Assembly: GCA_965661405.1 (NCBI GenBank)
Contig: CBFIDH010000006.1
Span: forward strand, 2,201 to 66,200
Reading direction: 5' to 3'
DNA: 64,000 bases
Origin: Candidatus Puniceispirillales bacterium
GTDB lineage: Bacteria > Pseudomonadota > Alphaproteobacteria > Puniceispirillales > UBA1172
The position numbers and the translations under genes were made by a program. The notes under the pieces were generated by a model. It was not told the DNA's origin. It was given only the letters and a program-made list of their open reading frames with translations, and ran no database searches. Position 1 is the first letter of the stretch. Each line of letters starts with the position of its first letter. This document shows positions 3,267-51,410 of this stretch, piece after piece.

Positions 3267-3286
3267 TTAAAACATCGTGATTAAAA
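3260..3286. repeat. tandem duplication, ATCGTGATTAAAA x2, period 14
   Basis: Read directly. Copy 1 contains the TGA stop (3264-3266) of the FkbM remnant. Confidence 0.9.
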
Positions 3287-3317
3287 TGGGCCTAGCGTTT
3301 AAGAAAACCAACCTTGC

Positions 3318-3344
3318 AAAAATAAAGGCCGCGATAAAGCGGCC
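3318..3344 (-). terminator. rho-independent terminator candidate downstream of the DUF1989 gene
   Basis: On the minus strand, a GGCCGC-TTTATC-GCGGCC hairpin is followed by TTTATTTTT. Confidence 0.5.
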
Positions 3345-3455
3345 AAGTTGAGGGAGGAACTTAATACTATGGTAATGCACAAATCAGGGCGAATATTGCG
3401 CCTATGTGTTTTGCTCGTTCCTCGCCTTTGGTCTGTTAGGCTTGCCTATCCATTT

Positions 3456-4067: not shown

Positions 4068-4105
4068 GGGGCCTCAATACAAATGAAAATATAAAACGAC
4101 AGAGA

Positions 4106-4124
4106 TGATCACCTCATGTGATCA
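4106..4124. promoter_or_regulatory. inverted repeat TGATCAC-N5-GTGATCA, candidate operator
   Basis: Perfect 7-bp arms, about 40 nt upstream of the DUF1989 start codon. Confidence 0.3.
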
Positions 4125-4260
4125 CTTCCCTTAAAGAATATTAACCGGAAATCTTATTTTTTGGGATTCAAATAATGCGGCTAGGGCATTTTGCGCTCTT
4201 AACACGCTTAGTCCTTTTCCATCACAGATTTACCAAGATAGGTTTATTAGGACGTAACCA

Positions 4261-5310
4261 TCAGAATGTGGCGGTATCAACACCTAGGTTTTGCGCCAAT
4301 TCAAGGATTTCCTGCCATGTCGCCGTGGGCAGACTGATTGGTTTATTCTGGTTGGCTTTCCGCGCCTCGCTCTCGCGCTCCCCCGGAACAAACACCCTAT
4401 CAAAACCTTGTGCTGGTGGACATTCGCGCAACTCCAGCAAAATTTCTTCCGCAATGGATTGAAAGGTTGAAGGGGTTTGGTAGAGGCTACAATCCAAGGC
4501 CAAAATCAGCCAATGACATTCCACAGTAACCGGGCCTAGCATCGCTTCAGCGATCATTTCGGCGGCGACCGCCAAAGCATAACCCTTGGCCCCGCCAGCA
4601 GGCAAAATCGCACCGCCAGAAAAATAAGCCTCCGGGTCTGTTGAGGCATTACCATCTTTGTCAATCAATACACCTTCAGGCAAAGTGGCTCCGGCAATTT
4701 TTGCCCCATAAACCCAGCCTGCGGCGGCCGCCGAAGTCGCAAAATCAGCAATAACCGGGCCTTCTTTCCCGCCCGGAATTCCGATAGCATAAGGATTGGT
4801 GGACATCAGCGCTTTACTGCCGCCATAAGGGGCAACTAATCGCCAATCCTTTCTGCCGCCACCACCAATAATAATCGCCAAACAGCCCTGATCCGCGGCG
4901 TATTCCGCATAGGAACCTAGCCGCCCTGTGTGACCAGCGTTCTGAATGGCGATAGCCGCTAATCCCTTATCCTTGGCACGGCTAACAACATCCTTAATGG
5001 CTAGATTCATAGCTGGAATACCAATCCCGCCATGACCTTCAACAAGCCACGCGCCTTTTGCGTTTTGTTTCAACTCAGGTCGGCTTGCCGCCTTCATGTA
5101 TCCGGATTGATAATATTTTGCATATTGGTGGATCCGCCAAATCCCATGAGATTCAACATCCGAGCAATCAGATTCCAGCAAGTGCAAAACCACATCTTGC
5201 GCGATATCAGAGGGAACAGACATGGCTTCTAGTATTTTAACAGCAACCTGTCTCGCTATGTTTTGATCTATCTCAAGGCGCGGCGTGTCTTTACTGTATT
5301 TGCTGGTCAT
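4261..5310 (-). CDS. Ldh_2 family (malate/L-lactate/ureidoglycolate-type) oxidoreductase
   Basis: 349 aa. Its length and motifs such as ESHGIWR and NAGHTGRLG fit the Ldh_2 family. Confidence 0.7.
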   Translation of the reverse strand: MTSKYSKDTPRLEIDQNIARQVAVKILEAMSVPSDIAQDVVLHLLESDCSDVESHGIWRIHQYAKYYQSGYMKAASRPELKQNAKGAWLVEGHGGIGIPAMNLAIKDVVSRAKDKGLAAIAIQNAGHTGRLGSYAEYAADQGCLAIIIGGGGRKDWRLVAPYGGSKALMSTNPYAIGIPGGKEGPVIADFATSAAAAGWVYGAKIAGATLPEGVLIDKDGNASTDPEAYFSGGAILPAGGAKGYALAVAAEMIAEAMLGPVTVECHWLILALDCSLYQTPSTFQSIAEEILLELRECPPAQGFDRVFVPGERESEARKANQNKPISLPTATWQEILELAQNLGVDTATF

Positions 5311-5490
5311 CGGGTTTTCCTTGCGCCTGATCTTCCTTATCTAGTCAAGAATACGCCAGCCGATACCACTGTCAACCAATCACCATCAGTCTAATCATAA
5401 GTTATAAACATTGCATTAAGCCTGTGGGGGGGGAAGCCCCATGATATGAGCCTAATAAAGAGGCCATACACACCGCATAAGAGAGGTGAC

Positions 5491-6165
5491 TTAAGAAAGG
5501 ATACCGTCAACCGCGGCAATATCTTTATAAAGTGCTTTTTCTTCAGGGTTTTCAGGAGTGAACTTTCCAACAATAATTTTTTGTTTAGCAAAGCAAAGCA
5601 ATTTTGCGTATCTGGCATAATGCTTGATAATGCGTTCAACTTCCTTACCTACCTTGGCGGCCTCTGGCCCGGCGATATATTCGTTACGAAGACCTGCCTG
5701 CACCTGTTGCACGGTTTGTGCCTTCACCATCATCAGGTTTTTTTCAAATCCCTTGCGCTTGGCGATAGTGGCATCGTTAAGCTCTAGTTTTTGATTCATG
5801 GTCATCGGCGGTAAAATGACAACAATCTTACTTTCGCTTGCCATATTTTTTACGTTCGTGAAACCTTTTTCCGTTTTAATGAGATTAATCAAACTTGCCG
5901 TAATATCTTCGTTCAAGGATACAATCTCAATCCGGTCAACAAATGTTTTCACCTCAATAAAATCAGAGAGGCGACGACTTTTGTTGTTAAGCAAGATGCG
6001 GTCAGCATGGAACATACTATCATATTCAGAATGACTGCCGAGATCATTAATCTCTTTAACATAAGTAATAAAACGATCTCTTGATCTCGATTCAAAAGAG
6101 TCGCTATAACTCAAAAGCTCTTCCGAAGTTTTAAAGAATAGTTTTTCTAAAGCAGCTTCGTTCAT
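5491..6165 (-). CDS. hypothetical protein (possible RRF-like fold) in AT-rich islet
   Basis: 224-aa ORF in AT-rich DNA with no family recognised. The segment KIVVILPPMTMNQKLEL plus the following helix resembles the RRF motif IRVPLPPLTEERRKDL by eye. Confidence 0.55.
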   Translation of the reverse strand: MNEAALEKLFFKTSEELLSYSDSFESRSRDRFITYVKEINDLGSHSEYDSMFHADRILLNNKSRRLSDFIEVKTFVDRIEIVSLNEDITASLINLIKTEKGFTNVKNMASESKIVVILPPMTMNQKLELNDATIAKRKGFEKNLMMVKAQTVQQVQAGLRNEYIAGPEAAKVGKEVERIIKHYARYAKLLCFAKQKIIVGKFTPENPEEKALYKDIAAVDGILS

Positions 6166-6386
6166 AATATCATCTTACTACTGATAAACACATAAGCTAT
6201 TTATATTAATGATATTATTTTTTTAATCAAAGAAAAGTTAATATAATACAATTTCTCACCACTAATGTAATAATTATATCAATTTCATATTTATTAATGT
6301 TTTCATATATGGTTACTATTACATTACATGAATTTAATACAAAACTGACTAATGAGATTTGAGATTAAACTTCAAAGGTTTTAGAT

Positions 6387-6683
6387 ATGCTGACCAAAAT
6401 ATTTATCAGAACATTTCCCTCGGATGAGGAATGTGAATTGTTTGAATCAATACTAAAAACCAGATGGCCAAGTCTATTAGAGGACGTCAAAGGGGTGAGG
6501 TTCAACGCCTATAAAAACGCATCCCAGCAAAATATTCTAACCGTTGTTTGGGAGTTTCCTAATATCGAAACACAGAAAAAGGTTGAGAAACTCATAGAGG
6601 AGAACATTACAAAGTTCACGAAGACTCTGTCACCAAAGACCATGAGCTTTACGGGTGAGCAGATTTTGCATATTTCAACATAA
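6387..6683 (+). CDS. hypothetical small protein
   Basis: 98-aa ORF after an AT-rich divergent promoter region. No family recognised. Confidence 0.45.
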   Translation: MLTKIFIRTFPSDEECELFESILKTRWPSLLEDVKGVRFNAYKNASQQNILTVVWEFPNIETQKKVEKLIEENITKFTKTLSPKTMSFTGEQILHIST

Positions 6684-6757
6684 TCATGTCATCACGAAAT
6701 GCTGACATTTTAGCTGGCAACGAAACAAGCCAGTTACCTTATGAAGCGGCCGATTTG

Positions 6758-6973
6758 TTAGTCAAAACGACCCTCAGTATGGGCTTTCCATACCTCAAGT
6801 AACAATTCTTCACACTCTTCATTAGAAAGAAACTGGGGTTTATTTTCAAATGTGTCGAAGACTTTTTTGACAAAATCATCCCCATCGGCACTATCAGCAA
6901 GCAGCCGTTCTGCCTTATGAAGAAAGATATGCATATCGGTAACGCGCTTGCGAGTTTCTTGATTAAATTGCAT
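6758..6973 (-). CDS. hypothetical small acidic protein
   Basis: 71-aa ORF, convergent with 6387-6683. No family recognised. Confidence 0.4.
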   Translation of the reverse strand: MQFNQETRKRVTDMHIFLHKAERLLADSADGDDFVKKVFDTFENKPQFLSNEECEELLLEVWKAHTEGRFD

Positions 6974-7043
6974 CTCTCATCCTTCTTGGTTTTCCTTTTA
7001 TTACTCTATGAGATTAATCCGAATTGGTAAAGATGGCTGTTAC

Positions 7044-7068
7044 AATGAGATCAGATAATGAGATCAGA
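7044..7068. repeat. tandem duplication, AATGAGATCAGA x2, period 13
   Basis: Read directly. It lies 7 nt downstream of the stop of the 7075-7686 gene. Confidence 0.9.
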
Positions 7069-7074
7069 CAAAAC

Positions 7075-7686
7075 TTACCGTATGTGATTATTTTGGCGAC
7101 TATATTGCTGGGAAACGGTGCGCCGTTCAAGATATCTGAATAAATACATCAGCATCAGCATGGATAAAATCAGCCCCGTGATATCGCCAATAATAAATCT
7201 GGTCATCACCCCCCAAATCTCCCCAGTGGCGATAACCTCGCTTTTTAGATACGACCCTGATAGCGAATTAAACACAGAAGCCAGCACCCCCGCTATAATA
7301 ACACCTATCCAGTTTGGCTTAGTCATTCGGTTGGGATAAACCTTATACCCCATCAAACGCAGAACTTCAAAAGCAAGCACCGCGCTGCTCGCGCTAAAAA
7401 TAGGGATAAAGAAAGAAAAATGGGCTTGGTATTGTAATCCCCAGACTGAATGGGTAATGAATTCCGCAGGGATCAAGGCAAATAATACCTTTGGGCCAAG
7501 CAACCAGCTTGACAGCACCCTGACGGCGTGAGGCAGAAAAATGGTGCTGGCGATAAGGGCTGTTTCTCCTAAAAAGTAATACTCAACCGGAAAAACCACA
7601 TGGCGACAAAACCAGAAAACACTCACATAAAGAATGATTACAAAACCTAGCCAATGTTGATAAAGCCCTACCAATAAATGCATCAA
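7075..7686 (-). CDS. hypothetical multi-pass membrane protein
   Basis: 203 aa with about 6 hydrophobic helices. It is co-directional with, and 91 nt downstream of, the wHTH gene. Confidence 0.55.
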   Translation of the reverse strand: MMHLLVGLYQHWLGFVIILYVSVFWFCRHVVFPVEYYFLGETALIASTIFLPHAVRVLSSWLLGPKVLFALIPAEFITHSVWGLQYQAHFSFFIPIFSASSAVLAFEVLRLMGYKVYPNRMTKPNWIGVIIAGVLASVFNSLSGSYLKSEVIATGEIWGVMTRFIIGDITGLILSMLMLMYLFRYLERRTVSQQYSRQNNHIR

Positions 7687-7777
7687 CTTAACCCTAGGTT
7701 GCGCCTATGCTCATAAAAAACAGAAATGAGAGTCATCATAAATAAATTCCTTATACTTATGATAACTCATATCAGGC

Positions 7778-8089
7778 TTAGGAAAATTGATCCGTATTTG
7801 GCATATAAAGACCAGAGCGTTCAGACCCCACCTTATCAATAAATCCTGATTTAATGAGAGTTTGAAATGCACGATAAAGTGATGGTTGCGGCATATTCTG
7901 AACCAAAGGATGATCACGCAATTGATCAAGGTGGATAGGTTCTTGCTGTTCTTGCGATAGCATGATTAACGCAGAAATCACCTTCTTTTCGATCTCTGTC
8001 AATGACGCGATAGAGAGATCTGTTTCCATTTGCATGATTAAATTGCGAAGTTGGGCATAATATTGAATCTGGTGCATGAACTTTCTCAA
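7778..8089 (-). CDS. small winged-helix DNA-binding protein
   Basis: 103 aa. The pattern LTEIEKKVISAL...LYRAFQTLIKSGFIDKV looks like a MarR/ArsR-type wHTH. Confidence 0.5.
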   Translation of the reverse strand: MRKFMHQIQYYAQLRNLIMQMETDLSIASLTEIEKKVISALIMLSQEQQEPIHLDQLRDHPLVQNMPQPSLYRAFQTLIKSGFIDKVGSERSGLYMPNTDQFS

Positions 8090-8235
8090 TTCTAAAAATT
8101 GTTTAGAGAGTAACTGTTAATTTTATATAATAAACATATATATGGTTTCAATGGATAAGTTGTCTTTATATTACAAAACCTGTTCAATTTTTACCGCTAT
8201 CTTTTTGGCATTAAGAATAGAGATGATCTGATCTA

Positions 8236-8649
8236 TCATGTGATCTTGCCATTACTCACCTTGCCATTACTCAGGGCATCCAGAATAGGGCAATCCGGGC
8301 GGTCATCGCCATCACATCCCGCCGCAAGGTGCGATAACTGATCCTTGAGGGACTCCAATTCCTTGATTTTCCCCTTAATTTGATCAATTTTTTGCATGGT
8401 AAGCATTTTCACATCATGACTGCTTCTGTTTCGATCCTCGTAAAGGGCTAGTAATTCTCGGCATTCATCAATAGAAAAATTAAAGCGGCGCGCCATGCCG
8501 ATAAATTGCAATTTGGCAAGATCACTTTCTGAATAATCCCTATATCCTGAAGACGGGTCTTGATAAGGCACAATCAGCCCGATATTGGCATAATACCTTA
8601 CCGTTTTGGTTGTCAAACCAGCTTGTTTCGCGGCTTTCCCGATATTCAT
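8236..8649 (-). CDS. cueR: MerR-family Cu(I)-responsive regulator, CueR type
   Basis: The N-terminus MNIGKAAKQAGLTTKTVRYYANIGL is a MerR HTH. The C-terminal CDGDDRPDC (C-x7-C) matches the CueR metal loop CPGDDSADC. Confidence 0.8.
   Translation of the reverse strand: MNIGKAAKQAGLTTKTVRYYANIGLIVPYQDPSSGYRDYSESDLAKLQFIGMARRFNFSIDECRELLALYEDRNRSSHDVKMLTMQKIDQIKGKIKELESLKDQLSHLAAGCDGDDRPDCPILDALSNGKVSNGKIT
8245..8273. repeat. tandem duplication, CTTGCCATTACTCA x2, period 15, inside the cueR 3' end
   Basis: Read directly. It encodes the SNGKV-SNGKI repeat just before the stop codon. Confidence 0.9.
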
Positions 8650-8681
8650 TTCCGTCTCCTTGAGCTATTTTGCTTTCACGC

Positions 8682-8712
8682 TTTACCTTGCCTTGGGGGG
8701 AAGGTTTATAGT
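8682..8712 (+). promoter_or_regulatory. MerR/CueR-type promoter-operator
   Basis: TTTACC (8682-8687), 19-bp spacer, TATAGT (8707-8712). The dyad ACCTTGC-N7-GGAAGGT (8685-8705) lies across the spacer, close to the E. coli copA operator ACCTTCC-N7-GGAAGGT. Confidence 0.75.
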
Positions 8713-8731
8713 GTATTTAATGAGGATAATT

Positions 8732-9178
8732 ATGGCAACACTGACAACACATTTTGGTATCAATTGGACCTGTCGTCATACATGGCGGCGATCATCATAT
8801 AACACCATGTGGTGTCTGATTGGCTGTTCCATTGGTGATTTTGGAACGATAGCCTTTTTTCAATATTCGGGTATTCCGTGGCCAACATTACATATCATGA
8901 CACTTGCCATCATTAACGGATTGCTGACCTCAATCATTCTGGAAACTTTTATCCTGTCGCGCCAGATGGCGTTAAAGATCGCGTTCAAAACCGCGATTGG
9001 GATGTCCTTTCTGTCCATGATCGCCATGGAAATAGCCATGAATCTAGTGGATGTTATCTTGACCGGGGGGGCAAAGTTGACGTGGTGGGTGATACCCTTA
9101 ATGCTGATAGCAGGCTTTATCACGCCCCTTCCCTATAATTATTGGCGGCTAAAAGCATTAGGGAAAGCGTGCCATTAA
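8732..9178 (+). CDS. DUF4396 family membrane protein
   Basis: Start taken at ATG 8732, with a GAGGA SD 5 nt upstream. The protein has 4 TM helices and the CLIGCSIGDFG motif, and is divergent from cueR. Confidence 0.65.
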   Translation: MATLTTHFGINWTCRHTWRRSSYNTMWCLIGCSIGDFGTIAFFQYSGIPWPTLHIMTLAIINGLLTSIILETFILSRQMALKIAFKTAIGMSFLSMIAMEIAMNLVDVILTGGAKLTWWVIPLMLIAGFITPLPYNYWRLKALGKACH

Positions 9179-17685: not shown

Positions 17686-18052
17686 GGGTCAGATGGTCGG
17701 ATGATCGCTGTTTCGGCAGAGGAAAGTCCGGGCTCCAGAAAACCACGGTGCCGGATAACATCCGGCGAGGGCGACCTTAGGGAAAGTGCCACAGAAAACA
17801 AACCGCCGTCTTATGACGGTAAGGGTGAAACGGTGCGGTACGAGCGCACCGCGGTTTCGGTAACGAAACTGGCAGGGAAAACCCCACCGGGAGCAAGACC
17901 AGATAGGAACAGGATGCCCTTGAGGCAAGGGATGGTTTTCTCTCTATGTTCGGGTAGGTCGCATGAGGCGCGAAGGTAACTTCCGTCCAAGATGAATGAT
18001 CATCCTACCGCCTTGGCGGTGGACAGAACCCGGCTTATAGACCATCTGACCC
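17686..18052 (+). ncRNA. rnpB: RNase P RNA, bacterial type A
   Basis: GAGGAAAGTCCGGGCTCC (17719-17736) and ACAGAACCCGGCTTA (18022-18036) are the P4 strands. The terminal helix GGGTCAGATGGTC / GACCATCTGACCC closes P1. Confidence 0.9.
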
Positions 18053-18154
18053 ATTCCTATTTTGGGAATATCATCTTTTCTGCGCCGCCTTAAACATTTA
18101 TTAAGAAGATCACGATAGACTGTTCCGTGAGATTAAAACGGAGCTGATATCATC

Positions 18155-18694
18155 ATGACCTATTGCAACCGATTCCTTGCTGGCCTCTTTGGCATTGTTA
18201 ACCTGTTTGCCATCATTCCTATTAGCATGATCAGTTATGTGATGGGGGTAAGGTTTTGTTTTGATGGGCTTGGCATTGATCTGTCGGTGTCGCTGATCTT
18301 AGGGTTTATTTTTATGATCGTGGCGGTGGGATTAGTCAATGGATTGGCGGCTCTGTTTCTGTCCATCCTTGATCGGTTGAACGAGATGCGCCATAACCGC
18401 GAGGCTATCCTAGAGGCCTTGCACCAAATCCGGGATATCACGCATAATCAAAATATACATCAAGATGCTAATCGGGACGCTAATCGGCCATATTCAAATA
18501 TGAGCAAAAATGAAGCCTCCATCGCGGTCACCGCAGAACCAAAACCTGTGGCGAGAGCAAAACCCGTTGCCTCGAAAAAAGCGAAACCCAAAATCAGCAC
18601 TAAGACAGCCGCGCGCCAAACCCCTAATAAGAGAAAAACGGCTAAAGCGGCAACATTAGGCAAAGCCAAAGCGAGACCAAAGGCAAAAGCCTAA
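18155..18694 (+). CDS. hypothetical membrane protein with Lys/Ala/Pro-rich basic tail
   Basis: Two or three N-terminal TM helices, then AKPVARAKPVASKKAKPK...KAKARPKAKA. Confidence 0.5.
   Translation: MTYCNRFLAGLFGIVNLFAIIPISMISYVMGVRFCFDGLGIDLSVSLILGFIFMIVAVGLVNGLAALFLSILDRLNEMRHNREAILEALHQIRDITHNQNIHQDANRDANRPYSNMSKNEASIAVTAEPKPVARAKPVASKKAKPKISTKTAARQTPNKRKTAKAATLGKAKARPKAKA
18464..18487. repeat. tandem duplication, GAYGCTAATCGG x2, period 12
   Basis: Read directly. It encodes DANR-DANR, with one mismatch between copies. Confidence 0.85.
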
Positions 18695-19123: not shown

Positions 19124-19594
19124 GTGGAATTGTTCACGTCGACATACGAAAACAAGATTGACCGAAAGGGGCGGGTTTCGGTTCCTGCTAAGTTTCGGGC
19201 CATTCTTGAACACCGCAACGAACCGCTTATTCTGACGCGGTCGTTGACTCATGCTTGCCTTGAGGGAATGTCTTCAGAGCGCATGAATCAAATCGCTGAT
19301 GCGATTGATGGCATGGATGCCTTTTCCAATGATGCCGAAATGTTACAGATGATTATTGCCAGCGCACAAGAAATGCGCCCCGATAGCGAGGGCCGCATTG
19401 TCCTGCCTGAGGAGTTTCTTACCCACGCCAAGATTGATGAGATGGTTTTGTTTGCCGGGATTGGGCGTTCCTTTCAGCTTTGGGACCCCACCAGTTTTAG
19501 AGCTCGTGAAACAAACAGCCGTGCCGCCGCGAGAGATGGCCAGATGCCAAAACTAATCCTCAAACCGCGCGGCCCATCAGGAGCAGGGCAATGA
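19124..19594 (+). CDS. mraZ: transcriptional regulator MraZ
   Basis: NKIDRKGRVSVPAKFR and DSEGRIVLPEEF are the two SpoVT/AbrB-like MraZ repeats. The stop overlaps the next ATG (ATGA). Confidence 0.9.
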   Translation: MELFTSTYENKIDRKGRVSVPAKFRAILEHRNEPLILTRSLTHACLEGMSSERMNQIADAIDGMDAFSNDAEMLQMIIASAQEMRPDSEGRIVLPEEFLTHAKIDEMVLFAGIGRSFQLWDPTSFRARETNSRAAARDGQMPKLILKPRGPSGAGQ

Positions 19595-21720
19595 TCACGC
19601 ATCCGGAACATCACCCCGTTCTGGTTATTGAAGTCGTAGAAGCCTTGTCACCAAAATCAGGCGCGGTGTATCTGGACGCCACTTTTGGCCGAGGCGGTTA
19701 TAGTCGCGCCATTCTTGACGCCGCCCCTTGTCAGGTTGTTGCCATTGACCGTGATCCCGATGCCATCGCCGCCGGACAAGACATGATATCCGAATATCAA
19801 GGGCGATTGACGCTGATGGAAGGCCGGTTTTCTGATCTGAAAGATATCCTCCACCACCTCACACTTCCCGCGGTAGACGGCATTGTCTTTGATTTTGGGG
19901 TTTCCTCCCCCCAACTAGACCAAGCCGACCGCGGGTTTTCTTTTCGTCAGGATGGGCCACTGGATATGCGGATGGAGAAATCTGGCATCAGCGCAAAAGA
20001 CTTCATCAACTCCGCGACAGAAAAAGATATCGCCGATGTGTTATGGCGGTTTGGTGAGGAACGCGCTTCCCGGCGGATTGCTCGTGCCATTATCAAAGCG
20101 CGCGACGAAAGCCCAATTAGCACGACTTTTGAATTGGCCCACATTATTCGCGGGATTTTGCCGCGTCCTAAGCCCGGACAGATTGACCCTGCCACCCGCA
20201 GATTTCAAGCCATCCGAATTCATATCAATGATGAACTGGCAGAAATTGACGATGAAAGAATAACAGCTCTCATGGCTGATTCTGCTATGTCGCGCTGGTC
20301 ACCATGGGTGCGTCTTGTGCGTGCCTTCCGCAAGCATCAGCTTTCGCTTGAAATGGAAACCATGCTGATTGACCGTCAACCATCAGGCCGCGGCGCATGG
20401 ATCAGACTTTTTGATGAAATGTCTTCAAGCCTAAGTTTTCCTATTGATGATCGTCATGTGACGGAAGCAGAAATCCTTGATATGATGAGTGATCCTGATC
20501 CTCAGATGAGACGCAAAGCAGGGATGTCGCGCTCACAGGTGCTAACAGATAACAGCCGCACCATGGGGCTTATTCTCAACACCATTGCTAAAGACAAACA
20601 AGTGGATGACAAATGGCGCAAATTTTCGCGTCCCGTGTCATCACGCAATCTGGCTAATGATGTCGAAGATGAAGTCGTGGATCAACTGGCGGATAGCGTG
20701 ACCAATGCTATGCCAAAACTCAGCCACCGTTACTATGCGCTTAAGGCGCGGTGGATGGGGGTAGATCAGCTCAACTGGTGGGATCGCAATGCCCCTGTTC
20801 CCGGTGAGGATGACCGCATTTTTTCGTGGGACGAAGCCCGGCACATGATCCATGATGCGTTCGGGGCGTTTGATCCCGGATTCGCAACTATGGCGGATTG
20901 GTTTTTTGACCGTAATTGGATTGATGCCCCCACACGTCCGGGTAAGGCTTCTGGTGCCTTCTCGCATCCGACAGTGCCTTCAGCGCATCCCTATATCCTG
21001 ATGAATTATCATGGCAAGGTGCGGGATGTCATGACACTGGCACATGAACTCGGTCACGGTATTCATCAGATTTTGGCGGCGGATCAAGGTCATTTAATGT
21101 GTTCAACACCATTGACACTGGCGGAAACAGCATCGGTATTTGGTGAAATGCTGGTGTTTAATCGCCTGATGACGCAAACCGAAAACCCTGAACATCGCCG
21201 CGCGTTGTTGGCAGGTAAAATTGAAGATATGTTGAACACGGTGGTGCGGCAGATCGGGTTTCATAATTTTGAAACGCAAATCCACACGGCCCGACAACAT
21301 TCTGAGCTTACGGTTCATGAGATTAGCGATATTTGGATGGAAACCCAAAGGGCGGCGCTTGGCCCGGCGATAAAGCTGGATGAGAGTTATCGACCGTTAT
21401 GGGGTTTTATTCCGCATTTTATTCATGTCCCATTTTATGTTTATGCCTATGCATTTGGTGATGGGTTGGTTGGTGCGCTTTGGCAAAAATATCAGCTTGC
21501 CAAAACCGAGACAGAACAGGGCGCGTTTGTTTTGGCCTATCAACAATTATTGCGCGCAGGTGGCACGCGTCGTCATGATGAGGCATTAGCACCATTTGGC
21601 CTTGATGCAAAACAACCTGAATTCTGGTCGCTTGGTCTGGATATGATATCGGGAATGATTGATCAATTAGAAGCCGAACTGCAGGACAGTGGTTCTTTTC
21701 AAGCGTCTGACAAGGGATAG
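19591..21720 (+). CDS. chimeric ORF: RsmH (16S rRNA m4C1402 methyltransferase) residues ~1-220 fused in frame to an M3 oligoendopeptidase F lacking its N-terminus
   Basis: RsmH motifs are DATFGRGGYS, GVSSPQLD, FSFRQDGPLDMRM and ATRRFQAIRIHINDELAEI. From about nt 20250 the same frame reads as PepF (RWSPWVRLVRAFRKHQLS; HELGH at 21043-21057). The RsmH C-terminal SFHSLEDR block is absent. Confidence 0.8.
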   Translation: MITHPEHHPVLVIEVVEALSPKSGAVYLDATFGRGGYSRAILDAAPCQVVAIDRDPDAIAAGQDMISEYQGRLTLMEGRFSDLKDILHHLTLPAVDGIVFDFGVSSPQLDQADRGFSFRQDGPLDMRMEKSGISAKDFINSATEKDIADVLWRFGEERASRRIARAIIKARDESPISTTFELAHIIRGILPRPKPGQIDPATRRFQAIRIHINDELAEIDDERITALMADSAMSRWSPWVRLVRAFRKHQLSLEMETMLIDRQPSGRGAWIRLFDEMSSSLSFPIDDRHVTEAEILDMMSDPDPQMRRKAGMSRSQVLTDNSRTMGLILNTIAKDKQVDDKWRKFSRPVSSRNLANDVEDEVVDQLADSVTNAMPKLSHRYYALKARWMGVDQLNWWDRNAPVPGEDDRIFSWDEARHMIHDAFGAFDPGFATMADWFFDRNWIDAPTRPGKASGAFSHPTVPSAHPYILMNYHGKVRDVMTLAHELGHGIHQILAADQGHLMCSTPLTLAETASVFGEMLVFNRLMTQTENPEHRRALLAGKIEDMLNTVVRQIGFHNFETQIHTARQHSELTVHEISDIWMETQRAALGPAIKLDESYRPLWGFIPHFIHVPFYVYAYAFGDGLVGALWQKYQLAKTETEQGAFVLAYQQLLRAGGTRRHDEALAPFGLDAKQPEFWSLGLDMISGMIDQLEAELQDSGSFQASDKG

Positions 21721-21725: not shown

Positions 21726-23102
21726 ATGGCAGATGAATCATCAGGGCTTGGCGGGCGTTTTCGGCGATATGCACGGGTCACAGGAACGATGGGAAATCTG
21801 GCGCTCAAGATGGCAGGAGAACGCTATCTAGGCATAAAGATTGACCGTGAGGAACACGCCGCGAAACTTCGTGATGCGTTGGGCGGCCTAAAAGGGCCGC
21901 TTATGAAAGTTGCGCAAATTCTTGCCACTATCCCCGAAGCTTTACCTCGTGAATATGCCGAACAACTGGCCAATCTTCAAACCGATGCCCCATCTATGGG
22001 CTGGCTTTTCGTGAAGCGCCGTATGGCGGCCGAACTTGGCCCGGAATGGCAATCGCGTTTTGCTGATTTTGAAAAAACAGCTTCCGCCGCCGCCTCGCTT
22101 GGTCAGGTGCATCGCGCCACAAGCCATGACGGTGTTAAGCTGGCCTGTAAGCTGCAATATCCGGATATGGCCTCGGCGGTGCAGGCTGATCTGCGTCAGC
22201 TTAAGCTGATTTTCTCGCTTTATGAACGCTATGATAAAGCCATATCGACCTCTGATATTCATTCCGAGCTTGCTGAGCGCCTTGAAGAAGAACTCAATTA
22301 TAAGCGTGAGGCTGCCAATATGCGGCTATACCGTGATATGTTGGAAGGTGTGGACGGTGCCCATGTGCCGGATACTATTGATGATCTTTCCAGTGAGCGA
22401 CTGTTGACGATGACATGGGCGGATGGCATCAAACTAAAAACCTTTATTGAAGACAACGAAGATCAGGACAGCCGCAACCGTGTGGCGGAAAATATGTTTC
22501 GCACATGGTATATCCCATTTTATTATTATGGGGTGATACATGGTGATCCGCATCCGGGAAATTATACGATCACTTCTGATGGCGGTGTAAATCTGCTTGA
22601 TTATGGCTGTATTCGGCTGTTCAGACCTGATTTTGTTCGGGGAGTGATTGAACTTTATAAGGCCCTGAGGGATGAGAACGAAGAACAGGCTGTGGCGGCG
22701 TATGAATATTGGGGCTTCAAAGGACTTGATCGTGAAACCGTTAATGTCTTGAACATATGGGCACGTTTCATTTACACTCCATGACTCGAAGATCGGGCAC
22801 GACCAATTCAAGAAATGCGTGGCGGCGCTCATGGGCGCGAATTGGCTATGCAGGTACACGCTGAACTCAAGCGGATTGGCGGCGTAAAGCCGCCGCGTGA
22901 GTTTGTTCTTATGGATCGCGCCGCGCTTGGTCTTGGTTCTGTGTTCATGCATTTGAAGGCAGAGGTAAATTGGCATCGCCTGTTTGAAGGGATGATTGAT
23001 GATTTTGATGTTGATGTGTTGCGCCAACGTCAGATCAAGGCCGCCGAAAAGGCTGGCTTGCCAAGTTACCTTTGGCAATATGATGAAGACCAGCAACATT
23101 AA
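21726..23102 (+). pseudogene. ABC1/UbiB-family atypical kinase interrupted by one in-frame TGA
   Basis: ORFs 21726-22784 and 22815-23102 are in the same frame. The TGA at 22782-22784 sits between IWARFIYTP and LEDRARPIQE. The N-terminal part has KVAQILATIP and the kinase core; the C-terminal part has PREFVLMDRAALGLGSVF. Confidence 0.75.
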
Positions 23103-23131: not shown

Positions 23132-24304
23132 ATGATTATTGGCGTTCCAAAAGAAACACAAAAGGATGAAAGCCGAGTTGCCGCCGTTCCGGAAACGGTC
23201 AAAAAGCTGATCGCTTTGGGATTTGAGGTGGTAGTGGAAAAAGGGGCTGGCGATGGCGCGCTGATCCCGGATAGTGCGTTTGAAAGCGCAGGCGCATCCA
23301 TGGTCACAAATGCAAAGGCACTTGGCTCAGAGCTGGTGTTCAAAGTTCGGCCACCATCGGGTGATGAGATTGGCAAATTGACCAAAGGTGCAACGGTGAT
23401 CAGCCTGATGGAACCGTATAGTAATAATGACGTCGCCAAGAAACTTGACGCGGCAGGCGTTCATGGCTTTGGTCTTGAATTGGTGCCGCGCATCACACGG
23501 GCGCAGTCAATGGATGTGCTATCAAGTCAGGCGAACTTGGCAGGATATCGCGCTGTGCTTGAAGCGAGTGCCGTGTTCACGCGCGCCTTTCCGATGATGA
23601 TGACCGCCGCCGGAACCGTGCCACCTGCGAAAGTGCTGGTGATGGGTGCTGGGGTGGCGGGATTGCAGGCGATTGCCACCGCTAAACGTCTTGGCGCGGT
23701 TGTTTCTGCTACGGATGTTCGTCCCGCTGTTAAGGAACAGGTCGAATCGCTAGGCGGTAAGTTTGTTGCCGTTGAGGATGAGGAGTTCAAAGCTGCTGAA
23801 ACTTCTGGTGGTTATGCCAAGGAAATGAGTGATGCCTACAAAGCTAAGCAGGCCCAGCTCATTGCCGATACTATTAAAACTCAGGATATCATTATCACTA
23901 CTGCGCTGATCCCTGGTCGGGCGGCGCCTGTGCTTGTCACCGAAGACATGGTCAAGACCATGAAGCCGGGGTCGGTCATTGTTGATCTGGCGGTGGAACA
24001 GGGCGGCAACTGCCCGATTAGTGAGGCAGGCGAAGTGGTGGTCAAACATGGGGTGACATTGGTTGGATATACCAATATGGCAGGAAGACTGGCTGAAGTG
24101 GCTTCGATGCTTTATGCCAAGAACCTGCTCAATTTCCTGACTAATCTATGGGATGCTGAGGGCAAGACCCTAAAAATGGACAGCGATGATGAGATTATCA
24201 CCAGCAGTCTGATTACCAAAAACACATCCGCGGCTAAAAAGCCAGCCGCAAAGAAAGAAGACATGGATAAGAAAGAAGAAGAGGAAACAACTAATGGCGA
24301 GTGA
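23132..24304 (+). CDS. pntAA: NAD(P) transhydrogenase subunit alpha part 1
   Basis: MIIGVPKETQKDESRVAA, GAGVAGLQA Rossmann motif, and a K/E-rich C-terminal tail. Confidence 0.9.
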   Translation: MIIGVPKETQKDESRVAAVPETVKKLIALGFEVVVEKGAGDGALIPDSAFESAGASMVTNAKALGSELVFKVRPPSGDEIGKLTKGATVISLMEPYSNNDVAKKLDAAGVHGFGLELVPRITRAQSMDVLSSQANLAGYRAVLEASAVFTRAFPMMMTAAGTVPPAKVLVMGAGVAGLQAIATAKRLGAVVSATDVRPAVKEQVESLGGKFVAVEDEEFKAAETSGGYAKEMSDAYKAKQAQLIADTIKTQDIIITTALIPGRAAPVLVTEDMVKTMKPGSVIVDLAVEQGGNCPISEAGEVVVKHGVTLVGYTNMAGRLAEVASMLYAKNLLNFLTNLWDAEGKTLKMDSDDEIITSSLITKNTSAAKKPAAKKEDMDKKEEEETTNGE

Positions 24305-24713
24305 TGATCTGCTTTTGCAAGCAAAAACCCTGTCCGGACAGGCCGAGGCACTTCTGACAGAAAGCCAAGCCTTGGAGCAATCCATCGTGGCTTTGAGCAG
24401 TGAGACGGTGGCAAATGGTCATGCCGGGGTGGAGCCACTTTACTTTGGTATTACGGTGCTGATTCTGGCGTGTTTTGTTGGCTATTATGTGGTTTGGCGC
24501 GTGACGCCAGCTTTGCACTCGCCGTTGATGGGTGTGACCAATGCCATCTCATCGGTGATTATTGTCGGGGCGCTGATCGCGGCAGGCCCGGCAGATTTTG
24601 GATTTGCCCAGATGATGGGTTTCCTTGGAATTGTCCTCGCCTCCATTAATATTTTTGGCGGTTTTATTGTTACCCAGCGGATGCTGGCCATGTTTAAGCG
24701 TAAAGGGAGATAG
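24294..24713 (+). CDS. pntAB: NAD(P) transhydrogenase subunit alpha part 2 (membrane)
   Basis: 139 aa with 3-4 TM helices. It overlaps the pntAA end by 11 nt and is followed by pntB. Confidence 0.85.
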   Translation: MASDDLLLQAKTLSGQAEALLTESQALEQSIVALSSETVANGHAGVEPLYFGITVLILACFVGYYVVWRVTPALHSPLMGVTNAISSVIIVGALIAAGPADFGFAQMMGFLGIVLASINIFGGFIVTQRMLAMFKRKGR

Positions 24714-24715
24714 AG

Positions 24716-26116
24716 ATGGGCGCTTCAATTTCGGCATATCTTTATCTGGTCGCGGCGGTCATGTTTATCATGGCCTTGCGCGGCTTATCATCACCAGATA
24801 CAGCCCGGATGGGTAATTTCTATGGTATGGGCGGGATGGCAATTGCCATTATCACCACAATCTCAATGCCTAATGTCGTCAGCTATGGGCTGATCCTAGC
24901 AGGTATTGTTATTGGTGGCGGTATCGGCAGTTTTATTGCGATGCGGATACAAATGACTGCCTTGCCGCAACTGGTGGCGGCGTTTCACTCGCTGGTAGGT
25001 TTAGCGGCCTGTGCCGTGGCGGCGGCCGCGTTTTATAATCCGACCCCTTATGGCATTGGTGTACCCGGTAATATTGCCTTTGGCAGTCTGATTGAAATGT
25101 CTATTGGTTTGGCTATTGGTGCTATTACCTTTACAGGCTCGATCATCGCCTTTGGTAAATTGCAAGGGTTGATCAGTGGCAAGCCAGTCACCTTTCCGGG
25201 GCAACATATTCTCAATGCTGGGCTTGGTATTTTGCTGATTTTACTGGTGAGCTGGTTGGCGGCAAGCAACAGTATGATTGCCTTTTGGCTGCTCTTTATC
25301 GTGGCGCTGGTTGCTGGTGTGTTGATCATTATTCCGATTGGCGGTGCGGATATGCCTGTGGTGATATCCATGCTGAACTCCTATTCCGGATGTGCGGCGG
25401 CAGGCATTGGCTTTACCCTAGGCAATCCGCTTTTGATTATCACTGGCTCATTAGTTGGGGCAAGCGGCGCTATCCTTTCCTATATTATGTGTAAAGGCAT
25501 GAACCGTTCCTTTTTCAATGTGATTCTTGGTGGGTTTGGCGGTGAAACCACAGGCGGCCCCGGAGCAGATACTGGCGATAAGGTTGTCAAGCAAGGCAGT
25601 GCAGATGACGCCAGTTTTATTATGGGGAACGCCTCATCGGTCATTATTGTCCCCGGTTACGGGATGGCAGTGGCACAGGCTCAGCACGCTCTGCGTGAGA
25701 TGGGTGATATGCTTAAGGCCGAAGGGGTGCAGGTGCGTTATGCTATTCACCCGGTGGCAGGCCGGATGCCAGGGCATATGAATGTTCTGCTGGCGGAAGC
25801 GAATGTGCCGTATGATGACGTACAGGAGCTGGACGAGATTAACCGTGATTTCGCCCAAACAGATGTGGCGTTTGTTATTGGTGCTAATGATGTGACGAAT
25901 CCGCTGGCAAAAACCGATCCAACCTCACCGATTTATGGTATGCCCATCCTTGATGTGGAAAAGGCCAAAACCGTGCTGTTTGTTAAACGGTCAATGGCAT
26001 CGGGCTACGCTGGTGTTGATAATCCTCTCTTTTTCAATGACAACACCATGATGCTGTTTGGTGATGCCAAGAAGGTCTGTGAGGAAGTGATCCAAGCCAT
26101 GTCAGGTGGTCACTAA
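24716..26116 (+). CDS. pntB: NAD(P) transhydrogenase subunit beta
   Basis: Multi-TM N-terminal domain, and a C-terminal dIII domain (GYGMAVAQAQH, PVAGRMPGHMNVLLAEA). Confidence 0.95.
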   Translation: MGASISAYLYLVAAVMFIMALRGLSSPDTARMGNFYGMGGMAIAIITTISMPNVVSYGLILAGIVIGGGIGSFIAMRIQMTALPQLVAAFHSLVGLAACAVAAAAFYNPTPYGIGVPGNIAFGSLIEMSIGLAIGAITFTGSIIAFGKLQGLISGKPVTFPGQHILNAGLGILLILLVSWLAASNSMIAFWLLFIVALVAGVLIIIPIGGADMPVVISMLNSYSGCAAAGIGFTLGNPLLIITGSLVGASGAILSYIMCKGMNRSFFNVILGGFGGETTGGPGADTGDKVVKQGSADDASFIMGNASSVIIVPGYGMAVAQAQHALREMGDMLKAEGVQVRYAIHPVAGRMPGHMNVLLAEANVPYDDVQELDEINRDFAQTDVAFVIGANDVTNPLAKTDPTSPIYGMPILDVEKAKTVLFVKRSMASGYAGVDNPLFFNDNTMMLFGDAKKVCEEVIQAMSGGH

Positions 26117-31978: not shown

Positions 31979-33205
31979 TTATGGGCGTGACGGCCTTGTT
32001 CCAAAATAACCCAAAATACCAGCCAGGATTGGCACTGCCCCCAACACCATCAGGGTTTGCGCCAGAGAATATCCTGCATCAATCATCAATCCAATTCCTG
32101 CCGGGGATAAAGCTGAGGCAAAAACCATCATCGCGTGCATGATGGCTTTGATACTGCCGAGATAGCGACTGCCATAAAGCTCAGCCCAGATTGGCGTCAC
32201 AACGGCATATACCGCGCCTTGCACCAGACCAAAGATGGCAAAATAGACCCAGATCAGATGGGCAGGCTCAATCCAGCCCAGCATCAGAACAGGCAAGCTC
32301 AAAGCCATGACAATAGGCGAGGCGATGTTAATGGCGCTGAAACGGTCAACCATCATGCCGCCAATCAGGCTACCAAAAATGCTACACACAGCATAAATAG
32401 GATAGCCGCCCGTCCAGATAATTAGTGATATCCCCTTAGTGTCGGCAAAGTGGATTTGATGGAAAAATAATCCTGTTGAGGTGAAGGCAGGCGCTAATAC
32501 AAGCCCAGCTAAAAGCATAAACCGCCAATGAAAAACCACCTCTGAACTAGTCCAATGTTGCCCGTCTCTGCCAGTAGCGAGATCTTCGACACCGCCGCCA
32601 TCTTGCCCGTCTTGTCGACCTGATAACAAAAGACACGCCGGCACCATGATCACTAACACTAGGATAGATGTGATTTGCCAAGCTTGCCGCCAATCAACAC
32701 TAAGCAACAGAAACAGGATCAGCGCAGGCATAATCACCTCAGACAACGGATGACCTTGGGTGGCAATGGCAACGGCCCGCCCACGTTCAGCAACATAGCG
32801 CCGACTCATCGCGGTGGCATAAAGATGACTCATCATTCCTTGCCCGGTGAGGCGCAAAAAAAAGACGCCAAGCGCCAATGTTAACACCGATGAGATGATG
32901 GAAAAAAAGGCGGCGGCCATGGCTAAACCAACCACAATAATAAGCGAGATTGTCTTTAGACGGATGACATCAACAAGCCGCCCAAGAAAGATGATTACGG
33001 CGGCGCTGACCAAAGTGCCAATGGCATAAATCACGCCAAAATCCCCGTGGCTTAGCTGTAATTCTGATCTGATTTTTGCCGAAAATAGGGAAATGAAAAA
33101 GGTTTGCCCCGGTGATGAGAAAAACGCCAGCAATAAGCCAAATAAGAGAAAACGCCACTGGCTTTTGACAAAGGTGATATTGGCGCCGAGGCTGAATGAG
33201 GACAT
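31979..33205 (-). CDS. MFS transporter
   Basis: 408 aa with about 12 TM helices and an MFS loop 2-3-like motif (GRLVDVIRLK). Confidence 0.8.
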   Translation of the reverse strand: MSSFSLGANITFVKSQWRFLLFGLLLAFFSSPGQTFFISLFSAKIRSELQLSHGDFGVIYAIGTLVSAAVIIFLGRLVDVIRLKTISLIIVVGLAMAAAFFSIISSVLTLALGVFFLRLTGQGMMSHLYATAMSRRYVAERGRAVAIATQGHPLSEVIMPALILFLLLSVDWRQAWQITSILVLVIMVPACLLLSGRQDGQDGGGVEDLATGRDGQHWTSSEVVFHWRFMLLAGLVLAPAFTSTGLFFHQIHFADTKGISLIIWTGGYPIYAVCSIFGSLIGGMMVDRFSAINIASPIVMALSLPVLMLGWIEPAHLIWVYFAIFGLVQGAVYAVVTPIWAELYGSRYLGSIKAIMHAMMVFASALSPAGIGLMIDAGYSLAQTLMVLGAVPILAGILGYFGTRPSRP

Positions 33206-33288
33206 GGATGGGCTCAGATCATTAAAGACATGATCATCTTGGCCTCATCATGGCTTTTGTCAATCCTGTTGAAAGGAACTCAAACCAC

Positions 33289-33317
33289 AAAAAAATATCC
33301 CCGGAAAACCGGGGATA
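33289..33317 (-). terminator. rho-independent terminator after the 33344-33754 gene
   Basis: On the minus strand, a TATCCCCGG-TTTT-CCGGGGATA hairpin is followed by TTTTTTT. Confidence 0.8.
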
Positions 33318-33343
33318 CTTAAAAATAATGATTTATTAAATAC

Positions 33344-33754
33344 TTAGGCAACTGCCTGTTGTTTTGGTGGAGCCACAACAGCAAGAATACCACCGATAAC
33401 ACCGAGGATGAGACCAATGATAGCTGCTAAGCCACCAGTAAACAGCGAAATGCCACAGCATACCAAAATAACAATTCCAGCCATCTTTGCAGATTTCTGT
33501 GCCAAAGCCATAATTCCAGCAACGAACATGATAATTGATACCAACAACCAGATCAAAAACATCGTTGCATAACCATCTGCCGCGCCTGCAATTTCGTTTG
33601 CAGCAGCAGCTTCAAGAGCAGTGGCGGATACATCTGATACATACTCAGCCCCTGCGCTAGCTACAGATGCAATTGCGTAAGCACCCCAAGCAAAAATTGC
33701 GTTTAAAACTCCACCAATGATCGCTAATACTCCACCAGCTACTTTCATAGTCAT
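33344..33754 (-). CDS. hypothetical small membrane protein (Gly/Ala-rich TM helices)
   Basis: 136 aa with 4 TM helices and A/T-ending codon usage. A very AT-rich upstream region separates it from tRNA-Thr. Confidence 0.6.
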   Translation of the reverse strand: MTMKVAGGVLAIIGGVLNAIFAWGAYAIASVASAGAEYVSDVSATALEAAAANEIAGAADGYATMFLIWLLVSIIMFVAGIMALAQKSAKMAGIVILVCCGISLFTGGLAAIIGLILGVIGGILAVVAPPKQQAVA

Positions 33755-33965
33755 CTCCTAATACAATAATGAAAACCTAATATTATGCCTTATTAATATT
33801 AAATATATATTAATGCAATTATTAATTTTTAATTACAAAACCCATCTTTGATTTACCATTTTAGCCAATGTTTATAAACGAAATGGAAAGATATCGGCAT
33901 TCCCGTATTGGGATTGCTCATGATCTCATGGCGGCGTCTATCAACCATGAGAGAAAAAATAGTGA

Positions 33966-33993
33966 GAGGGTAAAAATGGTGGGAGGGTAAAAA

Positions 33994-33998
<5 letters not shown>
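33966..33998. repeat. tandem duplication, GAGGGTAAAAATGGTG x2, period 17, overlapping the tRNA-Thr 3' end
   Basis: Read directly. Copy 2 ends in TGGTG, the complement of the tRNA's CACCA 3' end. Copy 1 repeats it 17 nt further downstream of the tRNA. Confidence 0.9.
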
Positions 33999-34069
<71 letters not shown>

Positions 34070-34080
34070 CCAATAACCGA

Positions 34081-34110
34081 TTTATACCTGTAAATACAGC
34101 TCTTTGGCAA
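34081..34110 (-). promoter_or_regulatory. candidate promoter of tRNA-Thr
   Basis: On the minus strand: TTGCCA, 18 nt, TATAAA, about 11 nt before the tRNA 5' end. Confidence 0.4.
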
Positions 34111-34360
34111 GTGATTGTGGCGCATAGAACCAAAGTGGCTAAAGCCAGATCATAGCGCCAATATTGTTTTCAGTCATGCGATAAACATTTGCAAATAGCG
34201 GTCGTTTATATAGCTATGATGATGTCCACGCTAAATGCTATTGATAAGCAACTCGGCCATACTATGCAACAGCCCTGGTCAAAGGCTAAGAGCAGAAATA
34301 ACCTCGCGGATATCCATCCTTCACTTGGTTTTCTCTATCTGGTGGAAAAGCAGGATTTTA

Positions 34361-34380
34361 TGCCAATTCATGCCAATTAT
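34361..34380. repeat. tandem duplication, TGCCAATTMW x2, period 10
   Basis: Read directly. Intergenic, about 50 nt beyond the hemY stop. Confidence 0.8.
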
Positions 34381-34430
34381 AAGCATACAACGCTGGAATG
34401 GATGGCGGGAATGCAGCGCCTCAAACAAGT

Positions 34431-51351: not shown

Positions 51352-51410
51352 CTATATAAACCTCAAGGGAGGGCTTGCGCTTTGTGCAAGAATATCCCAT
51401 ACAGGAAGAA

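Follow-up and report, generated by a model that had tools for sequence, protein, structure and literature searches.

An open reading frame of 709 amino acids on the forward strand (positions 19591-21720 of the window, that is, the whole 64,000-nucleotide stretch of DNA that was analyzed) combines residues 1-220 of RsmH, in frame, with residues 110-604 of an oligoendopeptidase of the PepF type. Most likely the fusion arose as a chimera during assembly or amplification, at a repeat of 21 nt, and we infer that it is technical rather than biological.

Architecture of the fused gene and its genomic context

The N-terminal part of the open reading frame matches two profiles of the RsmH/MraW family of 16S rRNA m4C1402 methyltransferases, namely PF01795 (6.4e-71, 239.8 bits; residues 6-221 aligned with model positions 3-221 of 309) and TIGR00006 (231.4 bits, with a cut-off of 154.3; residues 3-220 aligned with positions 3-222 of 310), in agreement with a reading of residues 1 to about 220 as RsmH that had been made from the sequence alone. 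The N-terminal SAM-dependent methyltransferase fold is present and scores above the TIGR00006 cut-off; the full profile is not covered, given that the match ends at position 222, and the C-terminal third of the model with its (V/I)xFHSLEDR block, already noted as missing in the sequence-only reading, is absent. The same frame runs on into an M3 family oligoendopeptidase, as that reading had also stated: residues 200-694 match TIGR02290 (M3_fam_3) at model positions 92-585 of 587, residues 215-283 match PF08439, and residues 298-680 match PF01432 (2.5e-46, model positions 2-452 of 457). The zinc-binding motif HELGH of the M3 domain is read from the sequence and its translation at 21043-21057 on the forward strand, and the fused frame accordingly contains both the HEXXH zinc site and the M3 catalytic domain. 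The TIGR02290 score (551.4 bits) is just under the curated NCBIfam cut-off of 561.7 and the match is not full-length, with approximately the first 91 positions of the model unmatched.

For residue bookkeeping we used conspecific parents, the RsmH proteins P0259 and P0121 (318 amino acids) and the PepF protein P0242 (604 amino acids). The fusion retains residues 1-220 of RsmH, which are 98-99.5% identical to those of the two parents, and has lost residues 221-318 including the HGRLAVVAFHSLEDRLVK block; it retains residues 110-604 of PepF and has lost the first 109, within the range of roughly 100-130 missing residues that had been estimated beforehand. Fusion residues 221-709 are identical in amino acid sequence to residues 116-604 of P0242, and the peptide E-L-A-E-I-D is common to the RsmH and PepF parents. 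The profile searches reveal two truncated families, not one continuous known architecture.

The gene order, as derived from the open reading frames and profiles, is mraZ, fusion, ABC1, pntAA, pntAB and pntB, and the absence of the ftsL-ftsI-mur genes after the truncated rsmH, remarked upon earlier, is thereby borne out. The mraZ gene (19124-19594, forward strand) encodes an intact protein of 156 amino acids (PF02381, 1.8e-20; NF001477, 9e-40) with no nonsynonymous differences from the conspecific contigs. Its stop codon overlaps the start of the fused frame, an arrangement that is usual for rsmH, the second gene of the dcw/mra cluster, whereas downstream of the fusion the dcw context is lost and pepF'-ABC1-pntAB take the place of ftsL-ftsI. 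Conversely, the ABC1-pntAB-rpsU-COQ9… order that follows pepF is conserved at the fusion: an ABC1/UbiB-like kinase gene (21726-23102, forward strand), which in comparison with conspecific contigs carries a private in-frame TGA at 22782-22784, is followed by pntAA-pntAB-pntB (23132-26116, forward strand), the usual downstream neighbors of pepF-ABC1 in the conspecific gene order. The gene for class A RNase P RNA, rnpB (RF00010, 311.9 bits), maps upstream, at 17689-18053 on the same strand.

A 21-nucleotide repeat at the joint

Collinearity with the intact genes of conspecifics extends, on the forward strand, as far as 20251 for the 5' part of rsmH (19591-20251) and begins at 20231 for the 3' part of pepF (20231-21720, encoding PepF residues 110-604). 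The overlap is an exact 21-nt repeat, ATGAACTGGCAGAAATTGACG (20231-20251, forward strand), which conspecific genomes carry in frame in both intact genes; because the repeat sits in the same reading frame in both, the fusion product is in frame. This alignment-based placement overlaps the interval of 20240-20256 in which the joint had been suspected, and the microhomology that had been considered possible on account of a shared peptide turns out to be an exact identity over 21 nt. The intact rsmH junction reads ...AATGATGAACTGGCAGAAATTGACGCCGCGCTT, the intact pepF junction reads ...TTGAACATGAACTGGCAGAAATTGACGATGAAAG, and the corresponding reciprocal joint (pepF 5' part, core, rsmH 3' part) would read TTTTTATTGAACATGAACTGGCAGAAATTGACGCCGCGCTTCC.

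Within the window the core occurs in one copy only. A search of a collection of genomes from 185,579 species yielded no matches to it, and a scan of a metagenome collection yielded a single, unrelated match; in the rsmH genes of the same genus, the sequence departs from the core by synonymous changes. The breakpoint lies, as it does in chimeras, within an exact repeat common to two true loci. Nevertheless, the anatomy of the junction does not discriminate between the explanations, since recombination in vivo at short homology would use the same repeat. A length of 21 nt equals the lowest k that SPAdes/metaSPAdes and MEGAHIT use by default. It is also shorter than the final k of the usual multi-k assemblies, a point on the other side of the ledger, and a graph chimera therefore requires that both true paths be locally missing.

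Parental arrangements in conspecific contigs

The comparison with relatives showed that all 26 conspecific contigs, which come from more than 10 samples, keep the parental arrangements, and none of them carries the fused joint. Intact mraZ-rsmH-ftsL-ftsI… is found in 14 contigs (L006-L013 and L101-L106; 96.5-99.5% nucleotide identity), which continue rsmH with ftsL-ftsI-murE… and whose alignments with the window, 14 of 14, end at 20251. The intact 604-amino acid pepF is found in 12 others (L014-L019, L107, L109-L112 and L115; 98.0-99.7%), and all 12 alignments start at 20231. In five samples both intact genes are present on separate contigs, for example in ERZ23491603, on scaffold_11 (221 kb) and scaffold_1606. 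On the 221-kb conspecific scaffold pepF is absent, being located on another scaffold there, so that its distance from rsmH exceeds 31 kb and 190 kb. Assemblies made independently from the same population thus contain the unjoined parental loci and do not reproduce the joint. Contig ends close to the core were considered as a possible signal, with L115 beginning 70 nt upstream of it, and were dismissed as no more than is expected by chance.

Populations that are close to one flank of the joint are about as close to the other (98.24% vs 98.42% for contigs of the ERZ247946xx series; 99.1-99.5% vs 99.5-99.7% for KOPF15-1 contigs), and elsewhere the collinearity of the window with its conspecifics holds from 9587 to 39265, which argues for a single intragenomic misjoin and against a mosaic. 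The 64-kb window is free of gaps and contains no Ns; this speaks against generally low coverage and, to that extent, against a chimera. Among species-representative genomes there is no FtsI with more than 92% identity, and the best one, at 92%, belongs to the same genus and has rsmH-ftsL intact.

Searches for the products of the join were equally negative. Neither the fused nor the reciprocal protein is present among 5.8 billion clusters; the protein collection holds no record of the exact 709-amino acid fusion or of a reciprocal PepF-N::RsmH-C protein; and the matches to the whole open reading frame include no two-domain RsmH+PepF protein. Exact look-ups of the truncated ABC1 allele, of hyp179 and of the 292- and 141-amino acid proteins likewise found none on record, so that the collection does not contain this very strain.

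The two halves were also inspected for relaxed selection, and no signal of decay was detected. From six contigs the pepF part differs by 9-13 synonymous changes and by 0 nonsynonymous ones, which implies that the join either is private and very recent or is non-biological; the pN/pS of the rsmH part is an ordinary 0.16. As judged from these sequences, neither half has spent any time as part of a broken gene, and the event is private and without evolutionary trace.

Private lesions in the window

Hard lesions account for 4 of the 40 private changes in the window vs 0 of 224 in the 26 control contigs (p=4.6e-4). One is a stop codon that interrupts ABC1; the other three lie in rnpB, within 71 nt, and break the consensus. 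Codon 353 of ABC1 is a private TGA in the window and TTA (Leu) in 11 conspecific contigs, and apart from this stop the gene is under strong constraint. The rnpB changes are private transversions at 17841, 17878 and 17912, each of which violates the RF00010 family consensus or a base pair. Such a pattern of hard lesions is expected of a thinly supported consensus and not of a viable free-living lineage.

A private T>A at 20202 (forward strand), 29 nt 5' of the core, replaces with arginine the serine that is found in 14 of 14 conspecific contigs (RsmH S204R); the proximity of this substitution to the joint is not significant (p about 0.09), and the change could be repair-associated, which would count against a chimera. 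Another private change, G>T at 25393, results in PntB W226C. With respect to the synonymous/nonsynonymous and transition/transversion make-up, the private changes of the window are not abnormal in comparison with the controls, and the hard lesions alone stand out. The unfiltered use of private transversions as an indicator of error (p=0.007) was dropped, approximately 50% of the private coding transversions in the controls being nonsynonymous as well, and GC skew across the joint was uninformative because it is confounded by gene strand.

Origin of the join

Metagenome-assembled genomes are known to suffer from chimeras and from local errors of assembly (PMC7111523). Under the chimeric origin that we favor, two separate loci of one species of the SAR116 clade (Puniceispirillales), the mraZ-rsmH-ftsL-ftsI… division cluster and pepF-ABC1-pntAB, would have been joined within the perfect 21-nt repeat that by chance occurs in both genes. 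The join could have arisen by either of two routes: an assembler may have threaded through the common 21-mer where the true continuations were without support, or, when the whole genome or the library was amplified, a polymerase may have switched templates at the repeat. The sequence-only reading had left the choice open between an assembly chimera and a real rearrangement; the position of the join in the repeat, the parental contigs, the unrelaxed selection on the peptidase part, the private lesions and the lack of a fused or reciprocal product on record favor the former and weaken the latter.

That the joint reflects genuine recent recombination, for instance an inversion, we consider rather unlikely overall. 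If the join is real, RsmH(1-220)::PepF(110-604) would be expressed from the mraZ promoter, the division genes would have moved under the pepF promoter, and the cell would have to survive the loss of RsmH and PepF along with the damaging mutations nearby, a combination that seems improbable. In its most specific form, to which we give a slightly lower probability still, this is a very recent inversion or other reciprocal exchange in one lineage between inverted 21-bp repeats, the second joint of which would be PepF(1-109)::RsmH(221-318)-ftsL-ftsI… driven from the pepF promoter. The crossover within a perfect in-frame repeat, the derivation of both flanks from the same lineage at equal divergence, the long and gap-free contig that is collinear elsewhere, and the private substitution 29 nt from the joint all fit such an event, and the distances of more than 31 kb and more than 190 kb between rsmH and pepF make a large inversion geometrically possible; furthermore, RsmH and PepF are each dispensable in model bacteria. 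However, recombination at 21 bp over a long distance is rare, the joint is seen in 0 of 26 conspecific contigs, the reciprocal product is not on record in the protein collection, and neither half shows relaxed selection. An inversion would also cut the essential ftsL-ftsI-mur genes off from mraZ and Pmra and destroy two conserved genes, for which, as the E. coli Pmra indicates, a high fitness cost is to be expected, and it would have to coexist with the ABC1 stop and three changes in the essential rnpB within 5 kb, an implausible load for a free-living cell.

The viability problem would disappear, and the absence of a selection signal would be accounted for, if the joint were that of a large tandem duplication or a translocated copy, with intact rsmH-ftsL… and pepF persisting elsewhere, so that the rearrangement would be nearly harmless. 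Of the rearrangements that arise spontaneously in bacteria, duplications are the commonest, and their joints form at short repeats. We nonetheless see only a slim chance of this origin: direct support is lacking, a duplication of more than about 64 kb would be required, and three-way branching at the core should break a short-read assembly, so that a contig extending 20 kb to one side and 44 kb to the other would not result. Slimmer still is the chance of an inter-strain, inter-genome or binning chimera, or of an evolved bifunctional methyltransferase-peptidase gene. Metagenome assemblers do create joins between strains, and the left flank is slightly less similar than the right one to some contigs of the same sample; yet both flanks match one species at an equal level. 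A cross-species chimera had been suspected, given that the best RsmH match was 98% and the best PepF match 91%, and was ruled out by P0242, in which the PepF part is identical, and by the KOPF15-1 contigs, which are equally close on both flanks. An evolved fusion was rejected as well, considering that the domains are truncated at conserved cores, no homologous architecture exists and the closest relatives have separate genes.

Comparison with known cases and implications

The join resembles the chimeric contigs described for metagenome-assembled or single-cell genomes (PMC7111523) in its short perfect repeat, in the presence of the parental loci in all relatives, in being private to one assembly and in the other unsupported-looking bases nearby; it differs in that the repeat is merely 21 nt, the lower limit of graph collapse at k=21, and in the long, gap-free contig. 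With microhomology-mediated in-frame fusions it shares a junction within identical sequence and the preserved frame; unlike these, it has no reciprocal or independent copy on record and no evolutionary persistence, and its expected cost is high.

A true rearrangement would mean that, in a marine alphaproteobacterium not yet cultured, the operon for division and the cell wall has naturally been uncoupled from mraZ and the mraZ promoter, which would be moderately interesting with regard to how dcw is regulated; even then it would be a private variant, probably deleterious and soon lost, and no novel type of system. As an artefact, the join would be of practical value, because it provides a clean worked example of a 21-nt misjoin that gives a plausible in-frame two-domain protein, such that an annotation pipeline would deposit a novel fusion and report a dcw cluster without ftsL-ftsI. 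The contig is flagged for further doubtful bases, namely the ABC1 stop, the rnpB changes and PntB W226C.

The fused open reading frame and its relatives

The 709-codon ORF at 19591-21720 (+), the start of which overlaps the stop codon of mraZ (19124-19594), located directly upstream, combines an RsmH half with a PepF-like M3 half. In profile searches, residues 3-221 matched RsmH (PF01795, 6.4e-71; TIGR00006, 231 bits against a cut-off of 154), with only positions 3-222 of the 310 in the RsmH model covered, and residues 200-694 matched the PepF-like M3 oligoendopeptidase family TIGR02290 (551.4 bits, slightly below the cut-off of 561.7) in an alignment that opens at model position 92 of 587. 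PF08439 (residues 215-283) and PF01432 (residues 298-680) were both found as well, and the HELGH motif is encoded within the M3 part (21043-21057). Both halves are ordinary representatives of their families, each cut short at a conserved core; taken as a whole, the fusion does not qualify as a full-length member of either the RsmH or the M3 family. Downstream, the ORF is followed by an ABC1/UbiB-like gene and by pntAA, pntAB and pntB. The sequence-only reading, which had described an in-frame joining of truncated RsmH and truncated M3 peptidase and this downstream gene order, and had proposed the profile search of both halves, is correct in all these particulars; the possibility of one continuous known architecture gives way to two truncated families.

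The top matches to the whole ORF are ordinary M3 peptidases of 596-605 aa; this search detected no natural RsmH-M3 architecture, none of the 5.8 billion protein clusters contains a protein covering both halves, and the exact 709-aa product has no record in the protein collection. Source names on related proteins give the affiliation as the SAR116 clade (Candidatus Puniceispirillales). Compared with intact conspecific RsmH proteins of 318 aa, the RsmH half is 98% identical to one (P0121) and differs from another (P0259) by a single residue, S204R, whereas the amino acids of the PepF half are identical to residues 116-604 of an intact conspecific PepF (P0242, 604 aa). The truncated ABC1 allele, an indel-variable 179-aa protein encoded upstream of mraZ and two other proteins from the window gave no match in exact look-ups, so this exact strain is absent from the collections.

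Parental loci and the repeat at the joint

To the left of the joint, the window aligns with 14 conspecific contigs from ENA, JGI and Logan assemblies (96.5-99.5% DNA identity), in which the gene order is DjlA, ABC-F, the rnpB region, a hypothetical gene, mraZ, rsmH (318 aa), ftsL, ftsI, murE, murF, mraY, murD, ftsW, murG and murC. To the right, it aligns with 12 contigs (98.0-99.7% identity) with the order RraA-like, cupin and dehydrogenase genes, then pepF (604 aa), ABC1 (458 aa), pntAA, pntAB, pntB, rpsU, COQ9, HTS, purK and purE. Both intact loci are present, on separate contigs, in five individual samples; in ERZ23491603, for example, rsmH is on scaffold_11 (221 kb) and pepF on scaffold_1606. 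Intact rsmH followed by ftsL and ftsI was found also in three species-representative genomes of the same genus.

All left-hand contigs lose the match to the window at exactly 20251, and all right-hand contigs begin to match at exactly 20231. The 21 nt between these positions, ATGAACTGGCAGAAATTGACG, are identical and in the same frame in intact rsmH (entered in the codon GAT after AAT, left in GCC) and intact pepF (entered in CAT after GAA, left in GAT), which bears out the microhomology suspected at the breakpoint. Because the frame is shared, the fusion is in frame and selection need not be invoked. The repeat is specific to this species: the corresponding sites differ in rsmH of same-genus genomes (GAGTTGGCGGAAATTGAC) and in pepF of an 84%-identical relative (GAATTGGCAGAAATAGATGAC), and the 21-mer has no occurrence in a collection of genomes from 185,579 species and a single one, of unrelated context, in a metagenome collection. 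The core is polymorphic within the population: one conspecific rsmH contig (L008) encodes the same RsmH protein without the exact 21-mer, and in two RsmH variants (P0260 and P0261) the last core codon gives ELAEIE instead of ELAEID.

Divergence and private changes

The joint aside, 9587-39265 is collinear with conspecific contigs. Divergence on the two sides is equal, with identities of 98.24% (left) and 98.42% (right) to the ERZ247946xx contigs, and 99.1-99.5% and 99.5-99.7%, respectively, to the KOPF15-1 contigs; the halves therefore come from one lineage, and an origin from two organisms is rejected. The pepF part shows 9-13 synonymous and no nonsynonymous differences from six conspecific contigs, and the pN/pS of the rsmH part (0.16) is unremarkable and similar to that of its neighbours. 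The private branch of the window is short (about 0.15%), so all that these data show is a join that either arose recently and is private or has no biological origin; they do rule out a fusion gene that is established and evolving.

We define private changes as window positions that differ from all aligned conspecific contigs. There are 40 of these in 24.3 kb, most of them ordinary, including 21 synonymous transitions. In the ABC1/UbiB-like gene (21726-23102, +), which otherwise is under strong purifying selection (pN/pS 0-0.05), a private TTA>TGA change (base 22783) creates an in-frame stop at codon 353 (22782-22784); 11 conspecific contigs have TTA (Leu) at this codon, and a less close relative has CTA. 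In pntB (24716-26116, +), a private G>T at 25393 results in W226C within the NSYSGW stretch, where Trp is present in 9 of 9 conspecific contigs. The RsmH change S204R (20202) is 29 nt away from the core. A class A RNase P RNA gene, rnpB (17689-18053, +; RF00010, 311.9 bits), is flanked by the genes for the ABC-F ATPase and for the hypothetical protein encoded upstream of mraZ; it carries three private transversions within 71 nt (17841, 17878 and 17912), one of them in the conserved GUAAGAG loop and two at positions marked as non-canonical pairs in the covariance-model alignment. Private transversions as such were rejected as an unfiltered class of errors: about 50% of private coding transversions are nonsynonymous in the controls as well. 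Hard lesions, that is, stop codons or changes in RNA genes, account for 4 of the 40 private changes in the window vs 0 of 224 in 26 control contigs (p=4.6e-4). Under mutation-selection balance, such a load in 1% of the genome would not be expected for a free-living cell; a thinly supported consensus sequence would carry such lesions.

Origin of the joint

The anatomy of the junction cannot by itself decide its origin because any homology-driven process would join exactly at the repeat; candidates are in vivo recombination, template switching by a polymerase in an amplification step, and a 21-mer node common to both loci in a de Bruijn graph. We consider a technical origin probable, given that the whole population, near-identical strains and the same samples included, has the parental arrangement, and that the joint is confined to this one sequence and left no evolutionary trace. 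Furthermore, the join would destroy two conserved genes and sever the essential ftsL-ftsI-mur genes from mraZ and its promoter, which in E. coli is required for the proximal dcw genes, and the same contig has further private, error-like lesions. The length of 21 nt is also the exact minimum for a repeat to be collapsed in a k=21 graph, and k=21 is the default first k in SPAdes/metaSPAdes and MEGAHIT. According to the OMDB methods, contigs named in the style of the closest relatives apparently were made with SPAdes in metagenomic mode, which may apply to the assembly of the window as well. A technical origin is favoured also by the known occurrence of chimeras and local assembly errors in metagenome-assembled genomes (PMC7111523).

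The window, however, is long and gap-free, and assembly at higher k resolves a 21-nt repeat as long as the true paths have local support; both points count against a technical origin. A real recent inversion is therefore an alternative, though a less likely one, and a joint formed by duplication or translocation an improbable one. A search of the protein collection for the reciprocal product, PepF(1-115) joined to RsmH(221-318), gave no counterpart; the matches span one half or the other. Of the two explanations originally offered, the assembly chimera gains and the real rearrangement loses ground. A real joint would amount to a private rearrangement mediated by microhomology and would not represent a new kind of system. 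The feature is best filed as a probable chimeric join; it serves chiefly to caution annotators and to mark bases of this contig as doubtful.

Other features of the window

Upstream of mraZ, 18155-18694 (+) encodes a hypothetical membrane protein with a Lys/Ala-rich tail and no Pfam match; in-frame indel polymorphism among conspecifics results in lengths of 179, 183 or 187 aa. GC is low at about 2000-9000 (0.34-0.43 vs about 0.50 elsewhere). ORFs are sparse in two gaps of this block (2400-3456 and 6165-7075), and its ORF at 7078-7686 (-) has only a partial match to the MASE1 sensor domain (model positions 29-187 of 299), below the cut-off; a variable island or a remnant of a gene may be present here. 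The parent contig of one rsmH contig (L006) ends, by arithmetic, near 6455. The tRNA-Thr(CGT) gene at 33994-34069 (-) adjoins a low-GC stretch (33000-34400, GC 0.41); the termination of four conspecific contigs, each from a different assembly, at 33811-34043 points to assemblies repeatedly breaking at this tRNA or to variability of the region. Two others (L110 and L116) are collinear straight through it. A bacterial small SRP RNA (RF00169, 46.4 bits) is located at 51410-51504 (+), just upstream of a 630-aa ORF (51556-53448).
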